A DNA stretch of 62,309 nt, taken from positions 1 to 62,309 of the forward strand of contig JWZX01003208.1 in assembly GCA_001275005.1 (NCBI GenBank). Direction: 5' to 3'. Positions 6,701 to 62,140 of the stretch are shown here, piece after piece. The notes below the pieces were generated by a model. The model saw only the letters and a list, made by a program, of their open reading frames with translations. It was not told the origin of the DNA and ran no database searches. Each line of letters begins with the position of its first letter. The stretch's first letter is position 1. Source of the DNA: Chrysochromulina tobinii. Its lineage: Eukaryota. The position numbers and the translations under genes were made by a program.

Positions 6701-7536
6701 CGTTCACCAGAACTTCCGCACGGCCGTACAATTTGGCCTGGCGCGCACGGGCGATCTCGAGCTGGCCGAAGAGTTCGTCGAGACCGGCGTCGCCGGCTTC
6801 AAGCTCAACGGCCGTCACTGTGCGAGAGTGGACGGTGGCGCCCCCGCCGCCGAGGATGGCATCCACGTGCAGCTCGATGCTCGCGTTGGGCGGCACGAAG
6901 CCCGTCGTCGGGACGAAGGTGCACTCCCCTTCGCAGACCACCTTGAACGCCATATGCGACTGCAGACTGCGGGGACAAGCGGTCACGCACGCGGGAGAGG
7001 GTGCTTACTGCCAGAGATGGTGGGAGTCGAGGGGCATCGTGCGCAGGAAATGCGAACCTTGGATTCGTGATGCGCAGATCGCATGAAGGAGCAGCGACAA
7101 TGCGCAACGATTCCGGAGGATAAGCACCGAGCTCGATGCTTGCCATCGGAAGCGGGGCTTGCTCTTCAGGCTTGGACTCTATCGGATAAAGCTCGATGCG
7201 TCCACTTGAGGCAAACAATGAGGCCATGGCCCTCGCGTCGAATAGATCGCATGCAGCAGAGTCGATCTTCACCGCCTCATGCAATGCGATCGGACGATTC
7301 AGCAAGATGGCCGGAGCCTCAGCAGTAGCTCCTCCCTTGTTTTTGATGACAATCTCGATGCTCCCACCAGGAGCCACTGCGCCGGCTAATGGAATCACGG
7401 TTGTTTGATCGTCGCTCTGGAGGACGAGGAAGGCGTAAAGCTGCTCCGTGGGGTTCTCGAGGCGCACGCTTGCCTCGCCTTCGCAAAAGTGAAGCGCGCT
7501 TCTGTCGCGAACGCCGACGCGGATCGCCGCCATCAT
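3732..7536 (-). CDS. 2x MSP domain + coiled coil + protein kinase + coiled coil + PARP catalytic domain; intron 6967-7057
   Basis: MSP-like LENPTEQLYAF...GAVAPGGSIEI and spliced ITNPSLQSHMAFKV...GFVPPNASIEL; kinase VLKEY, HGDVKLPN, ADFE, YRAPE; PARP LHGT, FGHGTYFAED..K..QY, REFIVF..IYPEYLV. Confidence 0.85.
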
Positions 7537-13235: not shown

Positions 13236-14567
13236 ATGAAGACAGCGCTGTGCACGATCGCCCTCATGAGCGCTGCTGTTAACGCGCTATCGCTCGGTGG
13301 TCAGCCGGCCGCGGAACAACATCTTGACAGCCGAGCCCGGCTAGCAGCCCTTTCGGGCGGACAAGTAATGGCGCCCAACAGTGCGCCTTTGGTGCCTCCG
13401 CTCAACGATCCTCCCCAACAGTTGAAGATGCTCGCCTCCGGGCTCGTCAAGGCCGTCACCGTCCCGCAAGCAAAAGTCATCGATGGCAAAGCCTTCCCTC
13501 TAACACTGTCACCCACGGGCACACAATTGGTCGACCGCGCAACCTTAATCCGCGAGAACCGCCAGGAACTTATCGATGTGCTCCGCGAGTACGGTGCCGT
13601 GCTCCTTCGCGGATGGGGAGCGTGCGCCCCGTCACACTTTGCTGAGATCTCTGCAGCGCTGCAGCTGCCCACGACTGAGATGTCATGCTCGGCCGGCCCG
13701 CGCTTTGAGGTCGCGAGCAACGTGTTCACAGCGAACGAGGCGCCACCAACCGAACGCATCCCGTTCCATCACGAGATGGCTCAGTGCAACGCGCCACCCG
13801 CAGTCATTATGTTCTTTTGCGAGCAATCTGCGCCAAGCGGTGGCGCGACACCAATCATCGAGTCGCACCTTGCGGCGGCGTACCTGCGCTCGCGCCACCC
13901 GGACGTGGCTGCGCGCCTCGAGCAGAAGGGCGTGCGCTACGTGCGCATCATGCCGCCCGTGACCGATACCTCCTCGGCGTTGGGTAAGTCGTGGCGAACT
14001 GCCCTACGCGTCGAGTCGCCGGAGGAAGCTGAGGCAGCGCTGCGTGCCATGGGGTCGACGTGGACGTGGCTCGCCGGCGGCATGCTTCGCACGGTGACCG
14101 AGAGCCAAAGGGCCCCTGCATGCACGCGCTCACCATGGCGCCCCTCCCTCTTCCCACAGGTGACCGAGAGCATGCCGGCTCTCCTCCGTGATGAACGCTC
14201 CGGTCGCGAGGTCTTCTTCACGGCCGCTGAGTCCACCTTCAACGGCGTCGCAGACGAGGCCGCCGACCGCATCGCCGTTGAGGGCTCCGAGGAGGGGACT
14301 GAATGCCGGACTGTAAGGCCGGAAAAGTCCATCATCTATGGCGATGGCTCACCGCTCGACAGTCCTACGAAGGCGGCGATGCTCGATGTGAGCGCGTTCA
14401 TGCTAAGGGCGCAGGTGGCCATTCCGTGGCAGCCGGGCGACGCCTTACTTCTCGACAACGCAAGGGTTCAGCACTCTCGAGAGTCGTTCAAGCCGCCGCG
14501 CCGCATCCTTGCCTCCCTTGTGGGGACTCTCTCGAAGTCCCACGGCACGCTCCGATGGGACGCTTAG
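13236..14567 (+). CDS. TauD/clavaminate synthase-like Fe(II)/2-oxoglutarate dioxygenase; intron 14094-14159
   Basis: GAVLLRG, IPFHHEM, GGATP, WQPGDALLLDN...HSR; signal peptide; in-frame 66-nt GT..CCCACAG intron. Confidence 0.9.
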   Translation: MKTALCTIALMSAAVNALSLGGQPAAEQHLDSRARLAALSGGQVMAPNSAPLVPPLNDPPQQLKMLASGLVKAVTVPQAKVIDGKAFPLTLSPTGTQLVDRATLIRENRQELIDVLREYGAVLLRGWGACAPSHFAEISAALQLPTTEMSCSAGPRFEVASNVFTANEAPPTERIPFHHEMAQCNAPPAVIMFFCEQSAPSGGATPIIESHLAAAYLRSRHPDVAARLEQKGVRYVRIMPPVTDTSSALGKSWRTALRVESPEEAEAALRAMGSTWTWLAGGMLRTVTESQRAPACTRSPWRPSLFPQVTESMPALLRDERSGREVFFTAAESTFNGVADEAADRIAVEGSEEGTECRTVRPEKSIIYGDGSPLDSPTKAAMLDVSAFMLRAQVAIPWQPGDALLLDNARVQHSRESFKPPRRILASLVGTLSKSHGTLRWDA

Positions 14568-17928: not shown

Positions 17929-19843
17929 CTTCACGCGCGGCTGAGCCACGAGGTTGAAGCCCTGGAGGCGCAGCTCGCGAGTCTGGGTCAGGCCGACGCC
18001 TCACTCGCGACCGCGGCTGCCGCCGCCGCCGCCGCCGCGGAGTACGCTGCTGCCGAGAGCGCGACGCGCCGCGCCGCCCTGCTGCAGCAGCAGCACGAGC
18101 TGAGCACCGCCCAACACGACGCGCGTGCCCTCGAGCGTAAGCTGAGCGCCGCGAGCGCCACCGTTGCTGCGGCGGCTAGTGCTGAGGCTTCGACCTCGCG
18201 CAGCTCCGCGGAAGAGCAGCGGCTGATGTCATGCATCATCGAGCTACGTGCGCGGCTGCGATGCAAGCGAGCGCCGCCTCCACAGGCCGCCACAGACGAG
18301 ACAGAGGAGACGGGGATGGCGGGGATGGCGGGGGTGGCGGAGGAGGCGGGGGTGGCGGAGGAGGCGGGGATGGCAAGCACGCCTTCATCGTCGGCATGGG
18401 ATGCTCCGGCTGTGCCATGGCACACCTTACTCGACGAGACGAGACGCTGCCGCACTGAGAACGAGGCCGCCACCGAGGCCAAGGAAGAGGCTGCACGCCG
18501 CCATCGGCAGCTGCTTGGGCGGCGCCGAGCTCTCGAGGCCAAGGAGGCCGAGCAGCGCCAGCAAGCGGCCCAGGCGCTACGTGAGAGCGAGAGGGCAATC
18601 GCGGCGCTCGCGGCGTTGCAGACGAAGCTCGAGGCGCAGCGAGAGGTGGCGGAGGCTCGGGCGGCGGAGGCAACGGAGGCGGCGGCCGCGGCGCTCGCTC
18701 TCGCGGACGAGAAGGCGGAGGCAGTGTGCGCTGTCGAGGCGGCGGCGGCGAGCGTGCGGCTGGCGCAGGCTGCATGGAAGGCGGAGGAGGACACTACGGA
18801 GGGGCAGCGGACGGCTCACAGCAAGCTGAGCGAGCAGCTGGCGGTGCTGCGCGCCGCGAGGCGCACGGGGCGAGGGCGGCGCGAGGGCGAGGAGGAGGAG
18901 GGTGGCGAGGACGAGGACGACGAGGAGGACGAGGCAAGTGACGAGGGTGTGGCGGCGGACGAGGCCCCACACACCGAGGATGGCACCCTCGCCGCCGCCG
19001 TCGAGACGGTTGCAAGCCTCGAGGCTGCCCGTATGCGACTCCGCACTGAAGAGCATCATCTCATCTCCAAGCAGCGTGCCATCGACGTGGTCGCGCTCGA
19101 GGCGTACCTGACTGCTTCGGCGGCAGCGGCGCGGCTGCAGGTGCGACTGATTGCGACTGATTGCGACTGATTGCGACTGATTGCGTCTCTGAGACTGAGT
19201 GCATGCATGCGCGGCGCGGCTGCAGGCCGAGGCGCTCGAGGCGAACGATCTGGCTGAGGCGAGCTCGCGCCGTGTCGAGGTGTTGCAGCGCGAGCGCTCG
19301 CGTCGCTTCCTCCGCGGCGCCCAAGCCATCAGCGACGCGCTTCGTGCCACCTTCCGGAGCCTGTGCAAGCACGGCGATGCCGCCCTCGAGTACGCGGATG
19401 TTCCGTCAATCCTCTTCGCCGAGGGGGTCTCGATCGCCGTCAAGCCCCCGCACGGCGAGTGGACGCGCTTCGAGATACTGTCGGGCGGCCAACAGGCGCT
19501 CGTAGCGGTGGCGCTCACGATGGCGCTTCAGGAGGGCACGTACCTTGAGCGCCATGCTGAGCGTGAGGCCGGCGAGCGGACCGCGTTGTCCGAGGGCTAC
19601 GCAATCGAGGGGGGCGGGGAGGCCGACGCTTCCCCCCCTCCCTTTGTGCTCTTTGACGAAATTGACGCGGCGCTCGACACTCAAAAGGTGCGCGCGCTCG
19701 CCGAGCACGTGCGCGCACGCGCGGCCGGCCAAACGGTCTTCGTCTCGCATCGGAAGGAGCTGATCGAGGCGTCGGGTAGGCTGGTGGGCACCTTCATGGT
19801 CGACGGGGGGACACGCGCCGTGAGCGTGCCGTTTGGAGCGTGA
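15001..19843 (+). CDS. Divergent SMC-family ATPase; intron 19141-19225
   Basis: FKSF, Walker A GPNGSGKS, coiled coils, hinge-like VHGFLCERL...VNAVLG...KVGTVTC, signature LSGGQ, Walker B FDEIDAALD, switch SH. Confidence 0.85.
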
Positions 19844-20187: not shown

Positions 20188-22649
20188 ATGGCGGAGCCGT
20201 GTCCCATTGGGACCCTGTGCCCACGGCGTGCATCTGCTACACTGATGCCTAATCGTGTCTTTGAAAGCCGTCGTGCTGCCAGGCGAGCGCTGCAGCGCAA
20301 AGCAGCGCTGCAGAGCGGTGCAGCGCCCAATTACACTCCCAGGACCGGTCTGCATCTGGACCCGCATGCGCTGGCGCGTCAGCAGTTGGAGGCGCACGTG
20401 GAATCCACGGCAGCCGCCGCCGTGAGCAGCTTGAGGGCGGCACTCGCGCAAGGGACTGCAAGGCATGCTGCTGCCTCCCAGCCTCCCGATGGGCTGCGCG
20501 AGGCTCTCAGCCAAGACCCTGCGGTGGACGTGGACGAGGCCACGGCGGTGTGGGCGACCGTCTGGCGGCAGGAGGCGCGCCTGAGCGCGGGCGGGCTGAC
20601 TCGACAGGCCAAGCGAGGATGGACTCCGGACGGGCGGTTCCCGAGCGCCTCAGACACCGGCTTTGCGACGCTCTGTGAGCGCTTCGGCCTCGAGGCGCAG
20701 GCGCGGCGGCAGAAGGCGTGGGTGGCCGGCACGGCCCGCCCACGGCGAGTGCTGGCGCTGGCGAATCCGACGGCCCATGAGGGGCTCGCGTGGTGGGTCG
20801 CTCGGGTGGCGGCGGGCATGCTCTGGGTGGCCGGCCGTGACAATCACACCGCCCTCACGATCGGGTACTCGGCGCACGACGTCGAGGATGTACTCAACGG
20901 AGCGATCAGGCCGCGCGGACTCGGCGGCGACCTCGCCAGGGCCATGCGACCTCCCGAGGCGTCATCGGCCTCCCTTGACTGGACGCTCGAGGGCGGCGGC
21001 GCGGCGCTGCTCGCCGGCTGCCACGCGCGCACACGAACGGAGACATGCACCCTGCTACGCGATCGGGTGGACGGCGCCGAGAATCTCGAGCTATCTCGGG
21101 AGCAAGCTCGGCACGGAGGCATCAACATGCTGCTCGCCCGCAACCTGTTCAACATCGGCAGGTGCAGCCGCGAAGGGGTCCGCTTCCTCCGCGCCGCATA
21201 CGGCGACCGTTGGGACCAGTCCCGCGCCGTCCTGAGCGCTCGCGCCAACGCGTCCTCGCCGCCTCCTTCGCTCGAGAAGCGCTTGCGCTCGTCGTTTGCG
21301 CTCGCGGCGGCTTGCTCTCTCCAAGCGAGCCTCGGGCCCGCCCCGTCACTGCACCTCTACGTGGCGAACAATCTCGAGCAATCTCGCGGGGGCTCCCACT
21401 CGGCCCCCCTCAGCACTGCCGTCCACCCTTCCTATGGAGCGATTCGAACGGCCCTGCGCGATGCCGCGACGCTCTCGATTGGCATCTACGTGCGCACGCT
21501 CGCGTCCGAGATCCCCGGAGGCTCAGACTCGGAGGCTCGTCGCCGCTTGGGCTTCAGGCACTGGCCCGCGGCGGAACGCTCCGATGACCTTCGGATGGCC
21601 TCTAGACCTCGGATTGTCTGCCTCATCAGTCCGATGACCTTCCGATGACCTTCGGATGACCTCTGATTGTCTGCCTCATCAGTCCGATGACCTTCGGATG
21701 GCCTCTGATGACCTCTGATTGTCTGCCTCATCAGTCCGATGACCTTCGGATGGCCTCTGATGACCTCTGATTGTCTGCCTCATCAGTCCGATGACCTTCA
21801 GATGGCCTATTTGTCGGATGGCCTCTGTTGACCTCTGATTGTCTGCCTCATCAGGCACTGGCCCTCGGCGGAACGCTCCCATTACCTTGGGATTGCGGCG
21901 TGCGCTCTCGCTCTTGAGACGAGGTGGGCTGCAGGCCTCGAGCGCGGATGGCGGCTGATTGCGCCTGATTGCGCCTGATTGCGCCTTGAGCTCATCAGCC
22001 CGGATCTCCCGCTGAGTGATCGATCGTGATGAACAGTCATTGACAGTGAGTGCGCCTCAATTGCGCCTGATTGCGGAGCAGGTGGGCGCCGGGGTTCGAG
22101 AACGTCGCGTGGTTCGTCGCGTCCGATTCTCCGAGCATCGTGAAGCAGCTCGTGATGGACTTTGACGAAACCCTCGGTGTGAACGGAACGCGCCCCCTCA
22201 CCGGTCGGCGCGCCGTGCTGCACACAGGCGCGGGGGGGCTCCACACACGTTTCGATTTAGATTGGGCGGACCCTACCTGGACGGCGCTCCGCACGGCGCG
22301 CAGCACGCCTGCGGCGGCCGGTGCGCGCCCGGCGACGGCTGGCAGTGTCAACGGCAGCGAGGTGCACGCTCTGCGAACTCGGGCACTCGTCGAAGGGTCG
22401 GCCGATTGGCTGCTCCTCTCCGAGGTGGACACGGCGGTCATCGGGACGATCCAGGACGGGAGTGGCGGGTTCACCTTTGGCACGACGGCGCTGCTGCGCG
22501 GCCTGCGCCTCCGAGGAGTTCGCGCCGCACCCTCATGGAACGACCTCGTGAACGCGGCCAATGCGAGGGATGCGCAGGCCATTGCGCAGCGTTGTGTTCG
22601 GAATGAAGAGGCTCGGATCGTGCCAGCGACGAAGTGTCGCGCTCGCTGA
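20188..22649 (+). CDS. Putative fucosyltransferase-like (GT-B) protein; introns 21558-21854 (GC-AG) and 21924-22081
   Basis: Splicing joins the ORFs in frame via a 69-nt exon; IGIYVR, WFVASDS, DWLLLS, FTFG resemble alpha-1,2/1,6-fucosyltransferase motifs I-III. Confidence 0.55.
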
Positions 22650-28589: not shown

Positions 28590-31292
28590 ATGGTGTGCAT
28601 GCGCCGCGCCAGCCGCAGAGCGAGCGAGCGAGCGCAGCGCGCGCGAGCTCCTTGCCGACGCCGCGATCCATTTGCCTAGACCTCATGGTTCCATCGCTCT
28701 GCCAGCGCCACTCTGCCAATCTTGACCTGCCCATCTTCTGCCGCCTTCGCAGCCGGGCTGGGACTGGGGCTTCCTGAATGACAAGTATGACTTTGTCATC
28801 GACGTGTCCACCGGTCAGAAAATCCTCGTGGACAAGACGACCCCCAAGTATAAGCTGGATGCGTCGGGTAACATCTTCAAGGGGCCGCCAATCACGGACA
28901 CCCAAACGAAAGAGTGGACCACAGCCGGATGGGTCGGCTCGCTCGACTTTGCTTCTCTTGTCGTCGCCGCGCTGGAGCCGGCGGTGCCCGCGGGCTGCAA
29001 GGCGCTGGAGTACTTTCGCGAGACAGCCAGCCGCGACGAGCTGGACAGCCGCCTCCGCGCGGCCCAGCTCGCTGGTTTCAGCGACCTTGTGTGGGCGGCG
29101 GTCGAGAGGCTGCGCACCGAGCGCACCGCCGCCGAGGTGCAGGAAAAGTTCCTGACGGATGGCATGGGCCTGCTCGAGTACAGCGACCTGAGCACCTTCT
29201 TTGGTGGCCTCGAGGCCAAGGTCGGCGCTCCGAATCCCAAGATTGTGGATGCGATGGCCGCGGAGCATACGGAGCGCGACGACTCGAATGTCGAACTCGT
29301 CTCGAGCAACCACCATATAAAGACCACCTCCGCGATTGAGTGGCGCTTCGTCGTCGAGCCCGACCGCCCGCCTCCCGAGGGCTGGCCTGCCGAAGCGAAG
29401 CTGCTCGCTGCCAAGTTCCGCGCACCGATGCCGATCGCCGATATGGAGCTGCGGCTCACCGAGCGGAACGCGCGGCTGCGAAAGATCAAGGAGCCGTCAT
29501 TGATCCTCGCGGAGGGCTTCGGAGCACGGCTGTACACTGGGCCTCTGTTCACCAAGGTAGGATTGCCCACCGCCCGCACGACCCCTTTTCCACACAACCC
29601 TGCATTTTCCTCAGTGGCTGAGCGCTGCCCTGAAGCTTTGTGGTTTGGTTCGACGCTCTCTCTCTTCCCACACAGTACAATGGCGTCTTGCGCGGCATCG
29701 ATAGCAGCGTGCCGTTTCTCCGAGCTCAGTTCGAGATATTGTGCTTGGGCAACAAGTACACCACGACGCTGCATGCGATCAACTCGGCGATAGTCAAGCT
29801 GAGCAAGCTCACAGCGGCGACCAAGGTGTATCGCGGCTTGAGTGGCATGGGGCTGCCCGATGCGTTTTGGCGGGCCAACGAGTTTGGCGTGCGTGGAGGG
29901 ATCGAGGCCGCGTTCATGTCGACGACCACCGACCGCAAGGTGGCGATGGACTATGCATCGTCCTCGGGGGCCGCCGGCTCGGGCATCGTCTTCGAGGTCC
30001 TGCAGGGCATGATCAATCGCGGCGCCGACATCACCTTCCTCTCCATGTACCCGCACGAGCAAGAGGTCTTGTTTGCGCCTCTGACGGGGCTCGAGGTGCA
30101 CTCGATGCGCGTGGAGGACGCGGTGCTCGTCGTGAGCGTCGGCCTGTCCATCAACCTCACCGCCCTCACGATTGAGCAGGTGATCGGCAAGCGGCGCAAG
30201 CTGCTGGGCGACATGGCAGCCGGGGTGTGCCTCGAAGTGCGAGGCAAGCTCGGGTCGGCAATCGGTCCGCTGTCTGCGACCCTTCTCGATCGCGAGCTGC
30301 AGGCGGTCGCACTGAAGGAGTCGCCCGACTATTACAATGAAGATACGAACTTCAAGAAGGCGGTCGATGGCGTGCTGGCCGCGAAGCAGGTCGCGCTGTC
30401 GGGGGGTGGCGAGAGGCTTGCATTGTGGGGCCGGCGGCTGACCGCCGATGATTCGCGCCGAGTCGCCCAGCTGCGAGAAGCAGGTGCAAAGTCGTGGGAA
30501 CTGCGTGCGGCGGGCAAGGGCGGCTTTTCGGTGGCGGCGTTGCTACAGGGTGGCTACGAGGTGGCCAGTCTCGTTCGGGGTGATGCTGCTTGGGTTGCAG
30601 CAAGTGACAAAGAGCTCAAGGCGGCCGGGTTCGACGCGGCGGCCTTGATGGCAGCGGGAGCGACTGTTGCGGAGCTGAGGCGTGCAGGCTTTTCAGGCAA
30701 GGACGCGAGAGAGGCCGGCTTTTCATGCAAGCAGGCGAGAGAGGCCGGGATGCTGTCAACATGCAAGGACGCGAAGGAGGCTGGCTTTTCATGCAAGGAA
30801 GTACGGGAGGCTTGCTTTTCATGCAAGGACGCGAGGGAGGCCAGCTTTTCATGCAAGGACGCGAGAGAGGCCGGCTATTCAATCAAGCAGGCGAGGGAAG
30901 CCGGCTTTTCGTGCAAGCAGACAAGGGAGGCCGGCATGCTGTCGACCTGCAAGGACGCGAGGGAGGCTGGGTTCAAACCGAAGGAGTGCATGCAGGCCGG
31001 CTTCACATACGAAGAGGGCACGGCGGCTGGTTTCCGTGGTTCTTATCATTTTTGGCACAAATGTAAGCGCTCGCTGAGGATCGAACTCAGACTGCCCCTT
31101 GCCACCGTCCCCCTCCGCCTGGCGAGGCGGGTCGCGGCGGCCGCGCCGTGCTGCCCGCGGTGCGGCCCGCGGTGCCCTGCGTGCGGCCCGCCGGCGTGGC
31201 GAGCCCGCGCTGCCGACTCTCGCCCCCTCATGCTGGCGTCCTCGCGTGGCGGCGCAGATAATCTTGATTGGGATGGGACGAGACTTGGTTGA
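28590..31292 (+). CDS. Mono-ADP-ribosyltransferase (R-S-E class) with C-terminal AGF decapeptide repeats; probable introns 28593-28752, 29557-29675, 31063-31257
   Basis: RLYTGPLFTK|YNGVLRG, KVYRGL, FMSTT, EQEVLF (R, STT, ExE); repeats AREAGFSCKD; spliced end KYNLDWDGTRLG*. The ATG micro-exon start is tentative. Confidence 0.85.
30610..31035 (+). repeat. Coding 30-nt tandem repeat (AREAGFSCKD-type decapeptide)
   Basis: gcgagggaggccggcttttcatgcaaggac-like units, same family as 2375-2730. Confidence 0.95.
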
Positions 31293-32822: not shown

Positions 32823-34767
32823 ATGGGCGTCTTGCCGTCGCCCGCCGGCCATCAGGCGGTCGGTGGCGGGAAGGACATCGCCTTCTTCGCGGGCGTCATC
32901 CTGCTCATCAACAACATCACAGGGCCGGGCGTACCTTCCTTGCCGAATCTGTTTGTCGAGGCTGGTTGGCTGCCGCCGACGGCATGCATCATCTGCATGT
33001 GGGTGGTGACGACCCTGAGCGCGTCCATATTTGCCGAAGCGATGGATCGCATCCCCGGCAATGAGGGGTTCAAGGGCCGCGTCGAATTCGTCTCCGTCGT
33101 CGACCATTATTTCGGACGGAGGATGTACGTTGCCAGTCAGATCGGCCTCAACGGCGCGCTCATGTCTCTCAACATCATTTCGGTAATCCTGTCAGCGCAG
33201 GTGATGGACGTGCTGATCTCGGCCCTGTTTGGTAAATCATGCGGCCTCAACCTCACGCCATTTGCCCTGTACAGCAATGCCACGTCCAGCGGCTCTCCCA
33301 TCCCCGGCTCGGATCGTGTCTTCTCATGCATCGACTCGGCTGACCTGAGCCACGGCAACGGCTGGGGCTGTCACATTGTGCTCTCGCTCGGGTACGTGCT
33401 CACCGCGGCGATGGCGATCCCTTGCGGCGCGTGGAACCTCGACGACAACATGATCATCCAAAAGGGCGCCTTTGGCCTCACCGCGTGCTGCTGGCTCATC
33501 TGGATCTTGGCCGCCCTCAGCATGGCCTCGGGTGGTGGCGGTGCTGGTGGCGCTGATGCTGGTGGTGGTGCTGCTGGTGGTGGTGCTGCTGCTGGTGACG
33601 TGGCGGCCTCCGCTGAGCTCGGCCTGCACGCCCTGGTCCGCTCCACCTCCTCGCGGCTGCCCGCGATCAACAACAACCCGCAGCTCGGCTCGGTAGCGGG
33701 CGTGCTCGGTGGCATCCTCTTCAACTTCGGGTTCGTCACCACAGTCCCCTCGTGGCTCGAGATGGCATGCAAGTGCTCACCACGGCGCCATCCCCCCCCT
33801 TTCCCACAGGTTCGTCACCACGGTCCCCTCGTGGCTCAATGAGAAGCTACCGGGCGTGCCCATCAATCGGGCACTCTGGCTCGCGACCACGTTCAGCGCG
33901 CTGCTCTTCGTGGCCATCGGCTTCACGGCCGCTCTGGTCTTCTCCGATGTGCTGCAAGGGCCGGTCACAGCGACGTGCGCGCGCCAGCTCGAGGACCCCA
34001 CCTTTGTCTGCGCCAACGACCTGCTGCAGTTGCTCTCGCAGCCGGCGACCGCGCCGTGGCAGTCGAGCCGGGCGGCAACGACCCTGCTGCAGGCCTCCGT
34101 CTATTGCTTCCCAATCTTCTCGATCGTCTCGTCGATCCCCGTCTTCTCGATCATCATCAAGTATAACCTCATCGAGAATGGCTTCTCGCGCGGCTTCGGC
34201 TTCGCGTGGGGCGTCATCTTCCCGTGGCTCGTCGGCTTCCCTCTGCTCTACATGCCCGACGTCCTCGGGCGCATCATCAACATTACCAGTCTCTTCTTTG
34301 TGTCCTTCTCCAGCTTTGTACTGCCACTCGCCCTCTACGTTGTCCTCCAGCGCAAGGCCGGCCACGTCCGCCTGCAGGCCCAGCCGGGCCTCGGCACCAC
34401 CCTCCTCGGCGGCACACACACGACGAGCACTGCCGAGCACTGCGCGCACACTGCCCCCTCCGCTGTGGGTGTGAATGTGAATGTGGGTGTGAATGTGAAT
34501 GTGACCCTCGCAATGGATGGTCGCGATGCAGGCTCCACCCCGGCGGCGGCGTCGGAGGACGAGGGAGGCTTCATGGCACTCGAGCAGCAAGGGCGCCACC
34601 ATGTGCTGCCACGCTCGTGGACGTGCTGCACGCCGCCCGTCCGCTCCGCGCTCGCGGTGGCCATCGCCATCCTCGTCACCGTGGGCTCGATGACTGCTCT
34701 CTACCTGACGATCACGCAGGGGACGTACGACGTCGATGCGAGCATTTGTGCGACGGTGGGCAACTGA
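32823..34767 (+). CDS. Amino acid transporter (Aa_trans/AAAP family); intron 33731-33809
   Basis: LLINNITGPGVPSLP...AGW; many TM segments; FNFG|FVTTVPSWLNEK after splicing. Confidence 0.85.
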
Positions 34768-34866: not shown

Positions 34867-37800
34867 ATGCCAATGATCGCTGGCCGCGCGGGCGGCGCGT
34901 CGCAGATCATGGCCGCGGTGCGCCGGAGGAGAAAAAAGTCGCCGCCTATCGCGGGCGAGAAGGAGGGCGCCACTCTCGGCCTGAAGTGGAAGGACGTGGG
35001 TGCCAAGCGGCCCACCGAGGGCAAGGAGCTGCAGAATGACGGCCTCTCAAAGGCGCTGCTGCGGCAGAATATGCGCGGCGTTCTGCACTACGTGTTCAGC
35101 GTCGAAGAATTCAAGGAGTTCCACGTTCGCGGCCTCCAACTGAACAGCTTCGTGCGCGCGGGCCCGAGTTACTACGTGCCCGACGAGACGCCCGAGCCCG
35201 AGGAGCTGAAGCCGTGGTTCGTGCGGTGGACGAACAACGTGTTCAACGTTTTGAATTCGCTCTCGCTGCAGGCGTGCCTGTACCTGGTCTTCGTGATCGT
35301 CTTTCAGAACCTCGCGGGCACAATGCGCCGCAGGGAGGAGTACTACATGACGATGCACGTGATGAACAAGTTCGTGACCACGCCATTCGACAGCCAGCAC
35401 AACACGTTCGAGACGATCCGACGCGCTTCGGACATTTATGAGTGGGGCAACCAGGTGCTCTGGCCGGGCTTCTTCGGCGACGCTGGCCCGTGCAACCCCT
35501 TCGTGGGTCTGCCCAACACGCTCCAGAATAAAGGATGCAACGACGACGCGTGGCCCGACGGCGACGGTCCACACCATCTGGTGGGTGCGTCACCGCTCGG
35601 GCTTGACGAGCTGGTGCGTAGGATGGACATGCTCGACTGGACGGAAGGCATCCTGATCAAGCAGGGCCGCGCGGCGCCGCAGAACTGCGCCGGACTGCAC
35701 CAGATCGGGCAGTGCTACCCGGAGCTCGAGAGAGGCATCTACACCTCGTCGACGCAGACGTACGGGTACGTTATGAGCCCGCCCGACGAGACCCTGATTG
35801 CGCCCGACGAGACCCTGATTGCGCCCGACGAGACCCTGATTACACCGGACGAGACCCTGATTGCGCCCGAGAGCTGGTTGTGAGTGCCACACCTGATGGC
35901 CTCCGATGGCCTCCCTCATCAGCTGGTTGTGAGTGCCACCTGATGGCCTCTGATGGCCTGCCTCATCAGGTACAACATCAGCCACCCCGACGAGGAGCCC
36001 GAGATACGATGGAGATACTTCTCAGCTCGGAATCTCGGCGGCAATCCCGGTGGTCAAACCTCGGCGGCGATCCCGTCGATGCGCCAGTACGATACGGACG
36101 GTTTCATTGCGGTCGTCATCCCCTTCTTCTCGGAGATCTATCTCGAGGAGCAGCACGATCTCGTCGATTGGGTCGTCGACTACCGTCTCCACTACGTCAA
36201 CGCGACCAACGGCAAGACGCCACGATACTATTGCGTGCGGCTCTCGCACAACGGGCGCGACATGCATCAGGTGCGTGCGAGACGATTGCGTGGCCATGAA
36301 TGCATATGACAATGACTCATGCATGCTATGCTATGCCTGCATGCATGCAGGTTTGCGACCCAACGACCAATCGGCGCGACGGCTCGGGCAAGATGACCGG
36401 CGTGGTGCGCGCTGCGGTGGAGAACATGTGGAATGACCTCAAGCGTGGCCACTATCTCGATTCGAGATCGCGCGTGCTCACGATCACGCTACAGTACGCC
36501 TTTCTCCTTGATTGCTTCTTGATTGCCTCTTGATTACATCTGGATTACAGTACGCCTTTCCCCTTGATTGCCTCTTGATTGCCTCTTGATTGCCTCTGGA
36601 TTACTTCTGGATTCCCTCTTGAGTGCCGCTGAGGAGCGCTGCTTGCGTCCTTCATCAGGCTCAACTCGAATCACGTGGGCGTGCGATCTCGCTTCACCCT
36701 GATGCTCGAGCTCACCGCCCTCGGAGCGATCTTCCCATCTTACGATGTCGAGACGCGCATCCTGGACGAGGCGGCCCTCGACGACATGCTGCTGTATGCG
36801 CAGATCTCGATGGTGATGGTCGCTTTCTTCGCCATGCTCGAGCTGATCGAGCTCATCCGCCAAGGGCCGATCGACTACGTGCAGAACTTTTGGCACCTGA
36901 TGGACTGGGGAAACTACATCATCTTCCTGCAGGTGTACTTCCAAGTTGTACAGGTACGTGCGGCTCTCGAGCACTCAGACTACCCTCTGATACCCCTCTG
37001 ACACCCCTCTGACACCCCCTGATAACCCTCTGATGGCCCTCTGACACCCCTCTGACACCCCTCTGATGCCCCTCTGATGCCCCTCTGATGCCCCTCTGAT
37101 GCCCCTCTGATGCCCCTCTTGTCGGCGTACCTGATTGCCTCCCTCATCAGGTACGCCAGACCATCGAGAATCCGGACTGCAGCTCGTTCCTGTGCGCCAA
37201 CATCGGCTACTTCGATGATTGGAAGGCGATGGGCGAGTACCGCATCTGCAAGCAGTACCTCGCCCTCTGCGTGTGCCTACAGCTCTTCAAGATCACCAAG
37301 TTCACCAGCCAGCTCGTGCCAAAGATGGGCCTCATGTCGAATGTGCTCCGGCACGCGGCCATCGACATCTTCTTCTTCGCGATCGTCTTCTTCAACTCCC
37401 TCCTCGCCTTCTCGACCATGCTCTACGTGCAGGTGCGCTGATGACCACTGATTACCATTGATGACCCCTGATGACCATGCTCTACGTGCAGATGGGAGTG
37501 CCTCTCTCTGAGTGCCTCTCGGCGTGCTTCTTTCGGAGTGCCTTTCGGATGGCCTTTCGGATGGCCTCTCGGATGGCATGCTGATTGCATCTGCCTGCTT
37601 TGTGTGTTCTGCGTGCAGCTTGGGCCGGTGATGGAAGACTTTTACGACCAAGGGCCCGCGATCGTGTCGCTCTTCCGAGCTCTCTTCGGAGATTTCGATC
37701 TGGATGAGGTGATGAACCAGTCCTCAGGCTACATGAACGCGCTCCTCTTCCTCGTCTACCTCTTTGTCGCGATCTTCATCATGCTCTCTCTCTTCCTCGC

Positions 37801-39060
37801 CATCCTGGCGGAGGCGCAGGCAGCCGTTCGAGAGCGCGAAGCAATCAAGAAGGTCGACGATCCCAACTTCAACGAGTTTGGCGTGATGCACACGTGCTGG
37901 GACTTCCTCGGCTTCGGCTATCGCAGGGTACGCCAGGCGCAGATTCGGGTCTGATTCGGGTCTGATTCGGGTCTGATTCGGGTCTGATTCGGGTCTGATT
38001 TGGTTCTGATTGGGGTCTGATTGCCCTCCTCATCAGGTGCGCCAGACCTTGTATCCCGAGGAGGAGGCCCCCGCATGCAAGTGCTCACCACGACGCCATC
38101 GCTTCTCTCCCACAGGTTCGTCAGACATTGTATCCCGAGGAGGAGGCTCCCGTCGCCGAAGCAGTGCCGGGGCCCGAGCCGCCTCCGACCGTGGACGCAA
38201 TGGTCAAAGATCTCCGGGGCGAGGTCAAGACCATCAGCGAGATTGTGAACACGCTCTGCAGAGAGGTCGTCTTGCTGCGCTCGAATGGCCTCGTCGGCAC
38301 TCCGGAAGGGTGGCTCGCGCCCGACGGCACGCTACGTGGCACCGGCGAGCATGGCGCCCGCGACGACGCCGATGGCGGCGTCGTGAGTGTGGAAGACGCC
38401 CGGCGCATGCGCCTCGGGATACACGCCGAGATACACGCCGAGATGGTGAGTGTGGAAGACGCCCGTCGCATGCGCCTGGTGGTCGAGGGGCTCGATGCGA
38501 AGCTCACCAAGAAGCTCGAACAGATCGACGAGCGTCTCGCGAAGCGTGAGAAGGTGGCCGCGATCGAGCGCAAGGGCCACTTACCGGCCGGTAAGTCGAG
38601 GCCGTCGCCCTTGGTGAACGAGCGCACTGCCGCGGGCGCGGCCAGTGACTTTCAGCCCATCGCCGCACAGAGTTGGTTGGCGGGTACTACGGCCGCAGGC
38701 GGTGGCGTGGCCGCAGGCGGTGGCGGCGGCGACCGCGGCGCTGGCGGCGGCGGCGGCAGAGGGTGTGGGGAGAGCCCCGGTGCGGCGCTGGCGGCGGCGG
38801 CAGCGGCACTGGCGGTGGCGGCCCCGCCGCTGCATGCACGCCCACGCTCGCCTGCCGACCCGCTGCATGCATGCTCTCGCTCGCCTGCCACTCGGCCGCC
38901 CGTCCACTTCTCACCTGAACTCCTCACTTCCACACCAAGCAGCCTGCCGAAGCTGCTTGGGCCACCGACACGCGGACAACTCTTGGGTGCCCCCGACGAG
39001 CACCTAGATCACGCGATGTCACAGTACAGTGGCAAGTCGATCGCCGGCTTGTCAGCGTAG
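34867..39060 (+). CDS. Polycystin (PKD2/TRPP)-like cation channel; introns 35766-35969, 36271-36350, 36494-36658, 36954-37150, 37433-37618, 37928-38115
   Basis: Large extracellular loop ending LKRGHYLDSRSR; WHLMDW; pore SLFRALFGDFD; S6 FIMLSLFLAIL; all six introns preserve the frame. Confidence 0.85.
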
Positions 39061-49885: not shown

Positions 49886-50700
49886 GAGACGAGTTCATCT
49901 CTCTCTCGAGATTGGCCGTGACTCACAAACGGTAAAAAGACACCGGGGGGAGCCGGGACAAACGGTACCGTGAAGTCTCACAAACGGTGCCGTGAAGTCT
50001 CACAAACGGTACCGTGAAGTCTCACGAGCGGTACCGTGAAGTCTCACAAACGGTACCGCCGCAAAGTCTCACAAACGGTACCGCGAAGTCTCACAAACGG
50101 TACCGTGAAGTCTCACAAACGGTACCGTGAAGTCTCACAAACGGTACCGTGAAGTCTCACAAGCGGTACCGTGAAGTCTCACAAACGGTACCGTGAAGTC
50201 TCAAAGCGGTACCGTGAAGTCTCACAAACGGTACCGTGAAGTCTCACAAACAATAACCGCGATACGGTAGTGGTCGAACTCATGTCTCACACACGGTAGT
50301 GGCCAAGTCTCACAAACGGTAGTGGTCGAACTCATGTCTCACAAACGGTAGTGGCCAAGTCTCACAAACGGTAGTGGTCGAACTCAAGTCTCACAAACGG
50401 TAGTGGCGAAAAGAACTCATGAAGTCTCACAAATGGTAGTGGTCGAACTAAAATCTCACAAATGGTCGTGGCCAAAAGAACCCAAGTCTCACAAACGTTC
50501 GCCGAAGTCTCACAAACTGAACCGGGAACTGGAGGACCGTGAAGTCTCACAAACGGTACCGCGCGTCTTTAGAAACTGCTTACCCGAAGTCTCACAAACG
50601 GTAGTGGTCGAACTGCGAAGTCTCACAAACGGTAGTGTTCGAACTCAAGTCTCACAAACGGAAGTGACGAACTGCGAAGTCTCACAAACGAACTCGTCTC
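49886..50700. mobile_element. Putative non-autonomous DNA transposon (MITE-like): 11-bp terminal inverted repeats around a satellite
   Basis: GAGACGAGTTC (49886-49896) and GAACTCGTCTC (50690-50700); no clean target-site duplication. Confidence 0.55.
49920..50690. repeat. Minisatellite, core GTCTCACAAACGGTA, about 29 copies (22-nt period in the first half)
   Basis: gtctcacaaacggtaccgtgaa units grading into ...gtggtcgaactc variants. Confidence 0.95.
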
Positions 50701-55421: not shown

Positions 55422-56688
55422 CTACTCGGCGCTCAGCACGCGCCACGACGAGGACGCGGGTGGCATGGCCTGCGCCACGCGCTCCGCCGTCTTGGGCGCC
55501 GCGCCGTGCAAGATGAACAAGAAGAGATCCCACAGGCTCTCCGCGTCCGCCGAGGGCGCCGTCCCGAGCTGCGCGCCGCCGCCACCGCCGGTGGCGGCCG
55601 CGGTGGCGGCGGCAGCTCGACTGCTCGCGCGCACCTGATGAGGGAAGCAATAGTTGGTCATCATTGGTCATCAGTGGTCATCAGCACACCGCGCTCGACT
55701 GCTCGCGCGCACCTGATGAGGGACGCCATCAGAGGCAATCAGAGCTCTTCGGCCATGGCACTCAACGGCTCGAGCGCACCTCGGCAAATTCCTCCGAGGC
55801 TGCTAGGATGATGGCTCCGGTGGCGGTCACGGCAAAGGTGGAGACGAGGTAGACCGCGGCGATGTCGAGCTTGAGTAGCCCCTCGGGCAAGGTGCTCAGG
55901 CCCGTCAGGTAGCGCGAGGGGAAGGACCACACGCCCTGCTGCTGCCCCACGCAGTCGATGCACACCGTCCACATCCCCGGCGGCAGCCAACTCGACACAA
56001 ATAACCGCCAGTGCGAGCGGAGATAGCGAGCTCCCAGGTTCCAAACGACCGCGAACACGGGCGCGAAAAAGGTGGCGATGAGCCCGAGGCACTTGTGATG
56101 GTCCTCGTCGCCCGCAAGCGCCGCCAACCCCGCGAGCGTCATCGCCGCCAGCACGGCATTGCCCGCGGCGCGCACCGAATCGGCCATTGGCGCTGGCGTG
56201 CCGTCGGGCGCGGCGGTGAGAGTCCACTCAGACATCTTGAGTGTCCAGAGCGCGGCCTTGATGACGTGGTGGAAGAGCCACAGGATCTCCTCGAGCGGCA
56301 GCAGCGTCGCCGCACCCAGCCCGGTCACCTTCGCGGGATTGAAGGTCCAGATGCCAATCTGTGCCCCGACCGAATCCCAGACAAAGGCCTGACCGACGGC
56401 GATGGTGAGGATGAAGGCGAGGTAGGCGAAAGAGGCGGTGGTTTTCAGCGGGTCGCGCTCGTCGTTGAGCATCGTTGGCTTTCCGGCCGTGAGCAGCCAG
56501 AGCGTGGGCAAGAGCAGGAAGCCGTGCAGGTCCCAGTAGGAGAGCTCGAGGCCTCCACTCGCCACGAAGCCGGGGCCGTCCCAGCCGGACGAGCCGAATG
56601 CGACGCAGGTGGGTGGCAGCGTGCGCGGGGCCATGGACAAGCCGGCCGTGGCCATCGGCGCGAGCGAAGGAAATCTCAAGATGCGCAT
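55422..56688 (-). CDS. CrtYcd/CarR-type membrane lycopene cyclase domain protein; intron 55635-55779
   Basis: Two hydrophobic repeats: WDSVGAQIGIWTF...LPLEE and IDCVGQQQGVWSF. Confidence 0.7.
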
Positions 56689-56941: not shown

Positions 56942-58189
56942 ATGTTCGGCATGCCTGGCGCGTCTCCGGAGCTCGTCTCCATGAGGGCTGGCAAGGCCAA
57001 CCTGGAGGGTACCACCGTCACGTCCGACCCGAGGAAAGGGTGCGCACCACGCCGCCTTCTGCACCTGCGCCTGCGCCTCCTGCGCGCCCGCTCGTGCGCG
57101 CGCATTGGGCCGTGGCGCGCTCATCGATTACCCGTGTGCTGTGCCGCGCAGCTTGCTCATAATGCGCAAGTCGGACGACGGCCTCACGCACCTCATCTGG
57201 AAGGACCGCGTCGCCAACTCGGTGGTGGACGACCTGATCGTCTTCGAAGGCGACGCAAAGATCCAGCGCGTGGAGGAGTGCAAGGACGGCTTCTGCATGC
57301 TCATCGCGTTCGCTGCGGGCGGCCGCAAGCTCTTCTTCTACTCCCAGGAGCCACGTAAGAAGGGGAGCGATTGGGAGGACGTGAGCAAAGAGAAGGACCT
57401 CATGGACAAGTTCCACAGGGTGCTTACGGGCGAGTCCGCGACGGCACGGGAGGGGACTGGTGCGCTCGGCATGACGCAGGCCGAGCTGCTTGCGATGCTC
57501 GGCGGCACCGTCGCCCCGCCAGCGCCCGCCGCGCCCGCCGCGCCCGCCTCCTCCGCCGCTCCCGCCGCTGCGGCGGGCGCGGCGCCCGCCTTCTCCGCCG
57601 ACGCGATCTCGAGCATCCTCGGGGGGCTGGGGCCCGCAGCAGGGCCGCCCGTCGCCCTCAACGACGTCCTACGCGCGGAGGACGTCGTGCCGAAGGTGGA
57701 TGAGGCGATGGAGGCGGCGCTCGCCGAGCACCTGCCCAGCGGAGACAGCGCGGCGGCGACGCTCTCGACGCCGCAGATGGCCCAGGTGCGAGATACGCCC
57801 GAGATCGCGCGAGATATGCCCCGCCCACGTGCACATGCACCTCCACTCCCCCTCCCCTGCCCAGCTCCCCGCTGTATACCCCCTCCCAGCCCGCGCCCTT
57901 CTCGCGCGACAAGGCGCCTTCTCGCCTCCTCGAGTGCCTCCGATGCGCGCCAGAGTGCCCTCCGAATGGCTCTGATTGGCCCTGATTGGCCCTGATGAAC
58001 GGCCAGGCGGCCATGCGCTTCAACGAGGCACTCTACCAAGGAGATGCGTTTGGCCTGATGCGCGAACTAAACCTCAATCCGACTGGACCGGGCCTTGAGC
58101 CCTTTCTGCGGGCGTTGCAGGCTTCCACGGACGCGGCGAAAGCGAAGGAGGAGGAGGAGGAGCCGGTCGACAAGATGGATGAGAGCTGA
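56942..58189 (+). CDS. RPN13: Proteasome ubiquitin receptor Rpn13/ADRM1; introns 57040-57151, 57786-58006
   Basis: Pru domain RAGK...DPRKG|LL...DGLTHLIWKDR...DDLIVF...FFYSQE; C-terminal HLP...LSTPQ...F..AL. Confidence 0.9.
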
Positions 58190-58565
58190 GCGCGCCGAGA
58201 TGAGCGCGCCGTCGAGAGGTCCGACCGTCTGTGAACCTTGGCTGTGAACCTTGCCTGTCGACCTTTTGGCCGGCCACGGAGAGTGGAGAGGGACGCGACG
58301 TCGTGCGCATCCGTTTCGGCTCACGGCTCACGCGACAAGCGCAGAGCGGGCACAAGAGCCAGGGTTGGCCGTTGACAGTTCCGGAGCGGACGTACCGTCT
58401 TCTGCCCCAGGTAAAGTGCACCGACGGCTGTTGCGCCATAAAGAAGCGAAAACCAAGGCGCCCTCACCGCACGGAGTTACACACGAAAATCCGTCTAACG
58501 ATTAAGATAACATGTGACCGTGCGGTTCAGTCCTCGCTCGCGCGACAGCCGCGCACTGACGGTCA

Positions 58566-61500
58566 TCACTTCGTGAATTCGTAATCGTCGGGATTCGTCA
58601 TCTTCGTGATTGCTGATTCCATCGTCAGCGCGAAGGATCCGTGCCCGCCCACCCCCTCCTCCGCGTCGTCGCACGGCTCTACGTGGGCGAGTCGTGGCTC
58701 ACGCTTGCGAAGATGAGGGACGTCATCAGTCGTCATCAGTCGTCATCAGTCGTCATCAGGCTCTACGTGGGCGACGTGGCTCTCGCTTGCGAAGATGAGG
58801 GACGCATCGCGCTTGAGGACGAGCCCATCGCGCCAGCGCATGCCGCGTGCGTCCTCGCGGGGGCGCAGTCCCTGGCCGCGATTGAGCACGCACAAGACGG
58901 CGCGCATACTCGCGCCCCCGCCCGCCGCCCCCGCCCCCGCCCCCGCCCCCGACTTACCGGTACTGACCGCGGCGGCGCTGGCGTTGGCGTTGGCGGCGTT
59001 GGCGTTGGCGGTGGCGGCGGCGGCGGCGGCATCGGCGCTGCCACTCTGAGGGTCGAGATAGATTGCATGCGGCGGGCCTGCTAACGGTCGGCCGAAGAAC
59101 TTGGAGTTCGGGTCCGCTTCGTATTTGAACAAGCAGAGCTCGGCGCCCGCGACGGCGGCGAGCTGTCGGCGCTCGGCTTCCCCAAGGTTGGAGAGGCCAC
59201 TGCCCACGCGCCCGCGGCGAGGGCGGTACACGCCGCATTTGGCAACTGAGGCATCGGTCCGGAGGCCGTCAGGCGCGGTGGCTGGCGAGGTGAAGCCGTC
59301 GAACGCGCCCCCGCCGCCGTCGTTCACACCTCCGCCGCCGTCGTTCGCGCCTATGTTGCTGTCGTTCGCGTCGCCGCCGCCGTCCGCGCCCCCGCCGCCG
59401 TCGTCCACGCTGTCGTTCACACCTCCGCCGCCGTCCACACCTCCGCCGCCGTCGTCCACGCTGTCGGCCGTTTCGGAATCGCCTTTCATCCGGCGAGCCT
59501 GCGCTTCACACTCGAGTGAGTGTGAACATGCGACCTGCACCCGCCGAAGCATGCCTCGCAGTGCAGCGGCGGCCGCCTCGGGCGAAGCCCCGTCGGCAGG
59601 GGCAGCACGGGCGTAGAGAAAGGCCGCCACAAGCTGCAGCGTCTCGGCGCGCCGCTGCGCGAGATCGAGCGGAGATCGAGCGGAGATCGAGCGGAGATCG
59701 AGCGGAGATCGAGCGGACGCCAGGTCAGAGGGCAATCAAGGACGTCATCGGGGGTCATCAAGCACGCAATCAGGGTGGACGATGAGGTTGGCAATCAGGG
59801 GGGGGGGGTACGCAGGTAGAAGAAGAAGATGATGATGATGGCAGCCATCACGAGGGCACTCGAGCGCACCTGCACGTCAAGCAAGTCCTCATACCGAATC
59901 GCGAGCAGCGGCGTGCGAGTGCCCAGCCAATAGCGATGGAACGCCGCCCACACGGCCGCCTCCCGATGGACGTGCTCACGCCACTCGTCACGAAGACGGG
60001 TGTACTCGGTCGCACGCACGGAGCGCGTGTGGCTCTTGGTCAGAACCATATTCCAATACGAGTCGATCGCATCCACCGGGCTACGCACGAGGAGCACCGC
60101 CGCATGCACTCGCACCTGGGGGGGGCGAGGGGCGAGGGGAACGAGGGGCGAGGGGGGGCGCGCGCCGTGGTGACCGATGCATGCCGAAGGGTGGCGGAGA
60201 CTCGCGCGCCGTGGTGAGCAGATGCATGCCGAAGGGTGGCGGAGACGCGCGCGCCGTGGTAAGCACTCGCATGCGCGCGTCGTCGCGGCACACGCACCTC
60301 GGCCGCGCCGCGCCTCTCGGGCCAATGGCTCTTGACGAGCCAGACGCGACCATCCGAGATGCCCTCCGCCGCGAGCCCAAAGGCCGCCAAGTCGCGCGAG
60401 AGGGGCGCGTCTGCGTGCCCATCAGAGCCAGTGAGGATACCGGTACAGGACTCAAGGAGAGAGCGAAGTAACGAATTCCCAGAGCGGGGGTAGGAGACGA
60501 GGGCTACCTGCCGTGAGATGGGCGCCATGGTGAGCACATGCATGCAGAGCGGGGGTAGGAGACGAGGGCTACCTGCCGTGAGCGCTCGTGCGGCGCGAGA
60601 AAGCGTGCTGGCGCCAATCTCGCTGCAGCTCCCGTCACATCATCATCGTCATCATCCTCGCCGCCTTCCTGCGTGCCCAACAACAACAGCGACGACGCCG
60701 CCGCCCGGCCGCCGACTCCGTCGTCCAGCGCAGTCGGCGGATCGGCCGCAAGCCGCATCACTGCAAGCTCGTGCGCCGTCAGCCGTGCCTCCAGCTCGGC
60801 GTCCGACCCCCAATCTCCCCAATCGAGCTCCAAGGCTGCCGCCGCCACCGCTGCCGCCTCCATTTCCATGCCTGCATAGGGACGTCCAGCAGCAGCAGCG
60901 GCGGCGGCGGCGGCGGCGGCGGCGTCCTTGGCACGTCTCCATTCGTCGAGTCGAGCGCGTCGCTCGTCTCGCTCGGCTTCGGCACGGCGCGCCGCCTCGG
61001 TCTGTGCACTGGCGTCCTGAGCGCGCTTGCTCGCACGCCAGGCGGGCAGTTGAGATCTCCTCTCCGATATCCAACGCTGGAGTGCAGCAGTCGCAGCGAG
61101 GTGGCGCTCGAGTGCCGCCTCGGCCTCGCGACGTGCGCGGGCCTCGGCGAGTGCGGCCGCGTGCTCTGCGTCCTCGGCCGCTGCCTCGAGGCGCTCCTGC
61201 CGCCTGATGAGGGAGGCAATCCGACGGAGTTAATGAGGGAGGCAATCGGACGGAGTTGATGAGGGAGGCAATCGGACGGAGTCCATCGAGGCACACATGG
61301 GGTCACCAGAGGCACACATGGGGTCATCAGAGGCAGCTCTCACCGCTCAAGCCAGCGCTCGCGCCGCTGTCGCGTCTGCTCACGCGTCGCCTCCTCCGCC
61401 GCGGCCGCGAGGGCTGCGGCGTCCGCGGCTGCCTGCTGCTGTGTGCGCCGCTCCTCCTCTTCGAGGGCGCGCCGCTGCGCCATCGCGGCCTCGGCTGCCT

Positions 61501-62140
61501 TGGCGGCCGCACGCCGCTCGCGCGCCGCGCGCTCATTCAGGGCTGCCTCCCGCGCCAACGCCTGCGCTTGCCGTTCCGCCGCTTGTCGCTCCGCCTCGGC
61601 TCGCCGCGCGCGTGCTGTCGTGAGCTGCTCACGCAGGGCGGCCTTGTGCTCTTGCTCGCGCCGGCGGTCGGCCTCGATCTGTGCGCGCTCCGCGGCCAGC
61701 CGCGCCTCGCGATGCGATGACACGTGTGCGCGCTTGCGCGCCTGCTCTTCCTGGAGCTTCACAGCCTGCCGGTCCTGCCGCTCGCGCTCGCGCCGCTGCT
61801 CCTCGTCGTGGTACTGCGCCGCCGCCTCGCGAGTGAGCGCCGCGCAGAGCTGCACGCGCGACGCCCGCTCTTGGAGCTGCTCCCGTCGCGCGAGCGGCAA
61901 CTCGCTCTCGACGAGCTCGTCATCGGGCGCCTCCCACGCCCGCAGCGCGGTCGCCTGGGATGCAACTACTCGTAGTGGCACGTCGGGAGGCTTCGCCTGC
62001 GTAGAGACGCGAGACGCGCTCTTGCTCTGCGCGGCCGCGAGCAATGCGTCGAGGCGCGAGGCGGCCTGCGTCGTGCTCCTGTCCGGCGCCACGACCAACG
62101 CGCGTCCGGCGCCACGACCACCTTCACGCGGCGTCGCCAT
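58566..62140 (-). CDS. Coiled-coil N-terminus fused to sulfotransferase (WSCD-like) domain, multi-intron; 3' end uncertain
   Basis: PAPS-binding LVSYPRSGNSLLRSLLE, VKSHWP, VRSPVDAIDSY, RYEDLL; exons join in frame across introns near 61.2-61.3, 60508-60572, 60.1-60.3 and 59.7-59.9 kb. Confidence 0.75.

Follow-up and report, generated by a model that had tools for sequence, protein, structure and literature searches.

A recent intron built of a reused branch-point/acceptor cassette between duplicated exon segments in Chrysochromulina tobinii: a possible route of intron gain without a transposon

The window analysed here is a stretch of 62,309 nt of Chrysochromulina tobinii DNA (contig JWZX01003208.1), which carries on its minus strand a five-exon gene for a sulfotransferase-like protein (58746..62140). 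Its exons (62140-61344, 61203-60573, 60507-60298, 60115-59870 and 59654-58746) are separated by four introns, all with GT..AG ends, and the joined frame encodes 930 aa with 58% identity to the homolog P0009 over 780 aligned residues. The start codon and the intron 61343-61204 are putative parts of this model, and the skip of the intron 59869-59655 is seen in an RNA contig (X14 record 19). The gene is termed sulfotransferase-like because homologs of its product carry PF13469/PF00685; searches with Pfam matched neither single exons of the gene nor P0007 or P0009. The best named match of a neighbouring gene is a Chrysochromulina parva model (88% identity), as fits a Chrysochromulina-like haptophyte. 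At the stop codon of the host gene lies a duplication with a repeat filler (58676-58803, minus strand), which appears to create this stop codon; the RNA contig X14 record 17 spans 58118-58750 without a skip.

The second intron of this gene (60508..60572, minus strand) is a phase 0 GT..AG intron of 65 nt, whose position is set by the only GT..AG register on the minus strand among the 39 listed registers of the 65-nt deletion (60572..60508), by a skip in RNA and by the 930-aa frame. Its removal joins ...APHERSRQ to VALVSYPRSGNS..., and its retention leads to a stop at 498 aa. The intron is flanked and partly formed by an exact direct duplication of 38 nt, for which the chance expectation in the window is roughly 4e-13. 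Copy 1 (60545..60582, minus strand) comprises the last 10 nt of the upstream exon and the first 28 nt of the intron and provides the GT donor, while copy 2 (60480..60517, minus strand) comprises the last 10 nt of the intron, including the AG, and the first 28 nt of the downstream exon. The duplication spans CAG|GT and gives both splice sites. The 28 nt of copy 1 encode the conserved motif VALVSYPRS, and thus the exon is the original and the intronic piece is the copy. Between the two copies is a 27-nt filler (60518..60544, minus strand), made up of a cassette common to a family of introns and the start of the tail that usually follows it; it breaks off 7 nt short of the usual AG, at a CTC whose 3 nt match the exon upstream. 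The filler holds a predicted branch-point motif, TGCTCAC (60530..60536, minus strand), a motif that was itself part of the filter used in the cassette search, and the adenine at position 60531, which lies 24 nt before the 3' end, presumably acts as the branch point. The original prediction had given the repeat as 60481-60517 and 60546-60582, that is, 37 nt around a 28-nt core. The identity of the two segments holds, each being one base longer (60480-60517 and 60545-60582), so that the true sizes are 38 nt and 27 nt, and splicing from the GT at 60572 to the AG at 60508 restores the coding frame as predicted.

In both RNA runs examined, contigs join 60545 to 60479 and skip the 65 nt (X13 record 14 and X14 record 20), and the second of these continues in a manner fitting splicing of the next intron. 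No listed piece crosses the 65-nt skip in either DNA run (X1 and X5). The assembly of X1 breaks at the repeat and contains a separate 57-nt contig over the core with a depth of 43.8, close to the flanking contigs (35 and 44.4), which gives no hint of a half-dose allele; a core contig of this type is absent among the listed pieces of X5. Base differences from the window were not found among the listed pieces of the runs examined, and the 38-nt repeat is assembled in the loci L011 and L030 as well. These comparisons cover two DNA and two RNA runs at the contig level, with RNA and DNA from different samples; all or part of the stretch is present in 12 DNA and 6 RNA runs among the 21 listed, and X19-X21 share 0.00 of its words. 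The segment has the GT..AG ends of a U2-type intron and is removed from RNA, and it is a real, spliced, lineage-specific intron. Both the RNA junction and the support by DNA contigs for the duplication (the core in X1 standing at full depth), which the original prediction had named as checks, are therefore at hand.

Seven protein records (P0001-P0005, P0134 and P0135), which come from several assemblies, start within the focal intron, P0004 with a variant of its tail. In the locus L016, which is 96.7% identical, copy 1 and the cassette are already in place; at the cassette (about 1296-1340) this locus leaves the focal gene and runs on into the L008/L029 gene, either as a misassembly (chimera) or by ectopic recombination between cassettes, and hence it does not date the tail. 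In the sister lineage (~90% identity; 87-91% in the upstream exon), the intron is missing from all 15 listed proteins of a 26-member cluster, and P0008 and the outgroups P0009-P0012 are likewise continuous at the site, the empty site being read in all these relatives from protein rather than DNA sequence. The sister-lineage proteins all read out into the next intron and most start in the previous one, from which it follows that they probably represent genomic DNA. P0006 is 99% identical and empty at the site, and it shares a variant with L016, apparently of the same lineage, which is filled; its empty site may be due to repeat collapse or polymorphism, and it was set aside from the counts. The anticipated lack of the 65 nt in relatives is thus found in the 15 listed proteins of the sister lineage and in P0008. 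The intron described as newborn is indeed a recent gain, as the empty sister lineage indicates, although it is not private, being carried also by L016 and the seven protein records.

What the original prediction overlooked is that the core is a repeated family cassette, with three further occurrences in the window, every one of them preceded by a copy of the start of the next exon. These siblings, all on the plus strand, are a predicted intron of 66 nt (14094..14159), consisting of a 12-nt exon copy, the cassette and CCCACAG, another of 79 nt (33731..33809) with a 28-nt exon copy (one mismatch), the cassette and an acceptor, and a third (38037..38115) with a 36-nt exon copy (four mismatches), the cassette and an acceptor, which sits directly behind an older CTCATCAG acceptor. 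The next intron of the host gene (60116..60297, minus strand) contains three diverged tandem copies of the cassette. The 27-nt filler is found exactly in other loci, while neighbouring copies in the window differ from it by at least 2 bases; its identity to an intron of L007 is unbroken over 37 nt, and that to L008-3199 extends over 32 nt.

Scanning of metagenomes for exact matches to the focal 24-mer yielded 29 loci, a sample biased to the focal variant. From these loci, L004 and the window, 86 terminal cassettes were collected, which correspond to 30 distinct sites after orthologous repeats and sites short of flank were dropped. The 70 nt before each cassette were compared with the downstream exon, and 858 mismatched pairs served as control. 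A copy of the exon start precedes the cassette above the 99th percentile of the control at 25 of the 30 sites and above the control maximum at 20; the five sites below the threshold include true short cases such as L034-405. The 25 exon copies are 12-45 nt long (median 27) with 92% identity, 11 of them being perfect, and they start with GT in 21 cases and with GC in one. A linker of 0-15 nt lies between exon copy and cassette. Introns of the family are 60-110 nt long, their similarity is limited to the 3' half, and about half of each is site-specific sequence. The tail usually ends in (C/T)CCCACAG (20 of 25 sites), and a predicted branch-point motif lies 23-35 nt from the 3' end in 24 of the 25 members. 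Upstream of the donor, the two copies match over only 0-1 nt at 17 of the 25 sites, where the duplication alone consequently yields no AG. The base before the donor is G at 18 of the 25 sites, which fits microhomology and splice selection equally. With similar introns at 30 distinct sites in unrelated places, the family has the property of introners in the broad sense.

Terminal inverted repeats (TIRs) are lacking: the inverted match at the filler ends is at most 2-4 nt at all 25 sites, and at the intron ends it reaches 7 nt at one site and stays at 2-4 nt at the other 24. Among the listed tails there is neither a poly(A) nor a repeat tail, no Rfam family was found at the gathering score in 60000-61400, and folding z-scores of -1.1 to +1.3 give no signal of structure. 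The 5' half of the cassette accompanies 36 of 60 loose matches to its 3' half, many of the other 24 looking like chance. Cassettes of one locus all lie on one strand, with the exception of L028, and none of the copies recognised in the loci examined was clearly intergenic or antisense. Among 50 exon frames of siblings, Pfam gave two matches above the cutoff, both to RIBIOP_C in L019, and no site was matched on both sides. Scanning of prokaryote genomes for the cassette gave none, and that of viral contigs gave five loci, of which L004 alone is real, but incomplete; L001-L003 and L005 were low-GC chance matches and were dropped. In L004 (1400-1560), the cassette and an acceptor lie in sequence of 70% GC on a contig filed as viral, which is likely algal DNA. 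At least 13 cassettes on one strand are packed into 5.5 kb of L008 (700-6200), where the variants group by position and several units have been re-duplicated in tandem; this arrangement suggests local copying.

A second, unrelated filler, made up of GATTGC/CTGATGAC repeats ending in CTCATCAG, is found in the window at 21558-21854 (plus strand) and 55635-55712 (minus strand) as well as in L022, L028 and L031. An exon-start copy above the control precedes it at 11 of 30 sites, and the viral contigs contained no instance of it. L034 and L010 have chimeras of both fillers with 24 nt in common. A mirror architecture, in which the donor belongs to the filler and the acceptor to a copy of the end of the upstream exon, occurs in the window at 19141-19225 and 37433-37491 (both plus strand) and in L033 at 2492-2620 (minus strand).

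Presence and absence of cassette introns can be seen within the species. In the TSR1 gene (named after the source records), a cassette intron of 74 nt is present in L034, where a duplication of 8 nt gives both splice sites (AG|GC), and absent in L019, the flanks being 98.9% identical over 560 nt; a repeat of 8 nt is too short for assembly collapse to explain the difference. Among 15 listed proteins of an 18-member cluster, six start inside this intron, eight are continuous and one is uninformative. A second site is occupied by a cassette intron in L019, L027, L034 and P0125 and empty in seven genomic proteins, while P0132 opens with a peptide compatible with the second type of filler, which points to a separate gain at this very position. 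Five other near-identical pairs of loci showed no whole-intron difference. The gain of cassette introns is ongoing, and the family is active. As a separate observation, a 19-nt partial cassette with short matches at both ends lies within an intron of one strain only (L008 3401, compared with L021).

These introns are best explained, with about as much belief as doubt on our part, by template switching, in which a piece with branch point and acceptor would be copied out of an existing intron and set into a duplicated stretch of exon, with selection deciding which products persist. A staggered break or a stalled fork in a gene would be the start, upon which the polymerase engaged in repair or replication would switch to an existing intron at a microhomology of 1-5 nt, at a point 12-45 nt past the future donor. 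It would copy ~27-60 nt, stopping at the AG of the donor intron or, at the focal site, at the internal CTC match, and its return upstream on the original template would duplicate the exon segment, all in one step. Selection would keep those events in which the exon copy starts with GT or GC and both branch point and acceptor come from the filler, and each new intron could in turn be copied into later ones. Break, enzyme and template alike are postulated. The variable ends of the filler and the existence of two unrelated fillers favour such a general process, and the variable duplication (12-45 nt) without TIR or poly(A) also counts for it. Three introns at different sites share the 15-19 nt that directly precede the cassette, and at one of these sites, L008-2426, this stretch matches the exon; to judge from these sequences, this suggests copying from intron to intron with capture. 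Junction overlaps of at least 3 nt occur at 4 of 11 direct joins, compared with 8% expected (p ~0.009, the source site L008-2426 being excluded). An extra linker at 13 of the 25 junctions is unexplained by the family model, which was built from the same sequences. Two sites with neither GT nor GC at the start of copy or exon are 3n and stop-free, which is weakly consistent with selection, not targeting, setting the GT.

Other features argue against this account. The strand concordance and the lack of clearly antisense or intergenic copies among the loci examined are at least as compatible with an RNA template, the near-fixed 3' end (20 of 25 sites) with a variable 5' end resembles target-primed retroposition, and the conservation of the 5' half of the cassette far beyond the branch site resembles a discrete element. 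SINEs and other non-LTR elements are marked by a target-site duplication (TSD) of variable length, a fixed 3' end, a variable 5' end, a poly(A) or repeat tail and a structured-RNA head. Copying by reverse transcriptase, either by target-primed retroposition of intron RNA, which would be SINE-like with a long variable TSD, or by template switching on cDNA followed by recombination into the gene, is thus a possible, if rather unlikely, explanation. Besides these ends, strand concordance and variable duplication, it would accommodate the 5' flank of the donor intron that some fillers have captured, and it has precedents in the accessible parts of the literature: non-LTR introners, ~5% of the classified ones, including a family of Pavlovales that 'co-opt 5', carry 3'' (PMC12130899), and a proposal of template switching by reverse transcriptase (PMC3443670). 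Ends of the retroposon type, found at 20 of 25 sites, are however not those of the focal site or L034, where the fillers end inside the donor intron, and the lack of a poly(A) or repeat tail, the mirror-image cases and the two unrelated fillers also speak against this route, and a reverse-transcriptase partner was not noticed in the loci examined.

It is improbable that two steps were involved, in which an intron is created or renewed in cis by simple tandem duplication and later receives the cassette by gene conversion, since the cassette improves splicing. In line with the classic AGGT model outlined in PMC3443670, the focal duplication covers CAG|GT and with it both splice sites, and several units are tandem copies or lie directly behind older acceptors, for which a potato RdRp case offers a parallel as far as the available text of PMC4974935 goes. 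On the other hand, the duplication provides no AG at the 17 sites with an upstream match of 0-1 nt, the sister lineage and the outgroups have no intron at the focal site, and 38 nt alone would be shorter than any intron of the family. Still less probable, and largely refuted already, is a MITE-like DNA-transposon introner, to which the dispersed similar sequences, the donor co-opted from a duplication as in Symbiodinium and in Polarella classes 4-10 (bioRxiv 2022.06.06.494994; 2020.10.14.339549) and the introner families of marine Chrysochromulina MAGs, many of which have an unresolved TSD status among the 30 rows covered of the 99 in PMC12130899, might point; filler ends with an inverted match of 2-4 nt at the longest are no TIR, the element ends are variable, and duplications of 12-45 nt (38 at the focal site, 8 in L034) are not of a fixed 3-8 nt. 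An assembly artefact or an unspliced frameshift allele, conceivable with contig data from differing RNA and DNA samples and a 38-nt repeat longer than the 31-letter word, is hardly credible in view of the core contig at full depth in X1, the RNA contigs that pass straight across and the seven protein records of several assemblies that read through the intron.

The template-switch account has parts that are not new. AGGT tandem duplication, break-repair filler and intron transfer are all precedented routes of intron gain, as the available text of PMC3443670 describes them. The mechanism was called distinct in the original prediction, which is likely, although its components have these precedents. 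Gain by tandem duplication is similar in that a duplicated exon segment gives the donor (here the acceptor too) and splicing restores the coding sequence exactly; the present introns differ in that a foreign filler, common to many genes and recurring at many sites, lies between the copies, gives the acceptor in most siblings and requires no parent intron at the site. A duplicated AG|GT gives both splice sites at the focal site and, as AG|GC, in L034, but not in most siblings, and with its foreign 27-nt filler the focal intron does not consist wholly of local duplicate. The family therefore resembles gain by tandem duplication but with a foreign, reused filler. Known gains at staggered breaks, as far as they are described in the sources at hand, also show direct repeats with filler DNA, but their repeats are short, and reuse of one intron-derived filler across genes does not appear in these descriptions; the present family has long repeats, and its filler, a 3' piece of introns, recurs in many genes.

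Among introners, those of Symbiodinium and of Polarella classes 4, 5, 6, 8 and 10 are alike in that, in the accessible text, a repeated insert gives the acceptor and a duplication the donor of many introns. Their duplications are fixed at 4 or 8 nt and they often have TIRs (bioRxiv 2022.06.06.494994; 2020.10.14.339549, both in part), whereas the present duplications are 12-45 nt (8 in L034), with no TIR, variable ends and about half of each intron site-specific. Family fam24 of E. huxleyi, unclassified and present in 5 copies, has '10bp terminal direct repeats' and co-opts the 5' and carries the 3' splice site, according to the accessible part of PMC12130899. It belongs to the same phylum and shares the splice-site logic, and its mechanism is likewise unclassified there; its automated TSD call is 2 nt, and it was compared by description, not by sequence. 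E. huxleyi also reportedly has intronic repeats of 10-11 nt. A published Chrysochromulina introner, as far as its description is available, has a 4-nt duplication and carries its own donor, the reverse of the cassette family. Introners in print have duplications of ~3-8 nt or none in the accessible parts of the sources (PMC3443670, PMC12130899, PMC11282704, PMC4202315, PMC7407515, PMC8469720, PMC4580454, PMC4974935, PMC9860276, bioRxiv 2022.06.06.494994 and 2020.10.14.339549). The view that described introners are DNA transposons with short TSDs, which accompanied the original prediction, does not hold for all of them, as ~72% are unclassified and some are retroelements in the available part of PMC12130899. 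A search of titles and abstract openings, with most subscription journals outside it, found no description of the duplication-plus-cassette anatomy. The cassette family works as an introner that co-opts the 5' and carries the 3' splice site, yet has neither TIRs nor a duplication of fixed size.

The origin of new spliceosomal introns is a long-open question, to which the present answer is mainly transposons. Tentatively, and with slightly more doubt than belief, we regard this alga as running a transposon-free intron factory, in which branch-point/acceptor ends of existing introns would be pasted between duplicated exon segments throughout the genome and continuingly, with independent introns arising even at one site, and in which standard introner screens would miss introns that are half unique. 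This may account for C. tobinii scoring 0 introner families in a large survey (PMC12130899, in its accessible part). The new introns keep a readable record, in that the exon copy is long, the donor piece can be traced and an empty allele exists, and they segregate in a mixed-culture species with DNA and RNA runs, in which donor tracing, age ordering, orientation tests and likewise mutation-accumulation experiments are directly feasible. The alga would thereby become a test case for intron origin without a recognisable transposon. The case is also a warning that repeats of this sort can be collapsed or mis-annotated.

Tandem repeats of other kinds lie in the same material. L027 has an array with alternating spacings of ~92 and 104-106 nt (about 6700-7330), in which a motif that we take to resemble a tRNA T-arm is present. 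In the window, a complex array of 22/29/52-nt units surrounds AAGTCTCACAAACGGTA (49958-50690), and two 30-nt tandem arrays with related units (2377-2669 and 30687-30967) likely encode 10-residue repeats.
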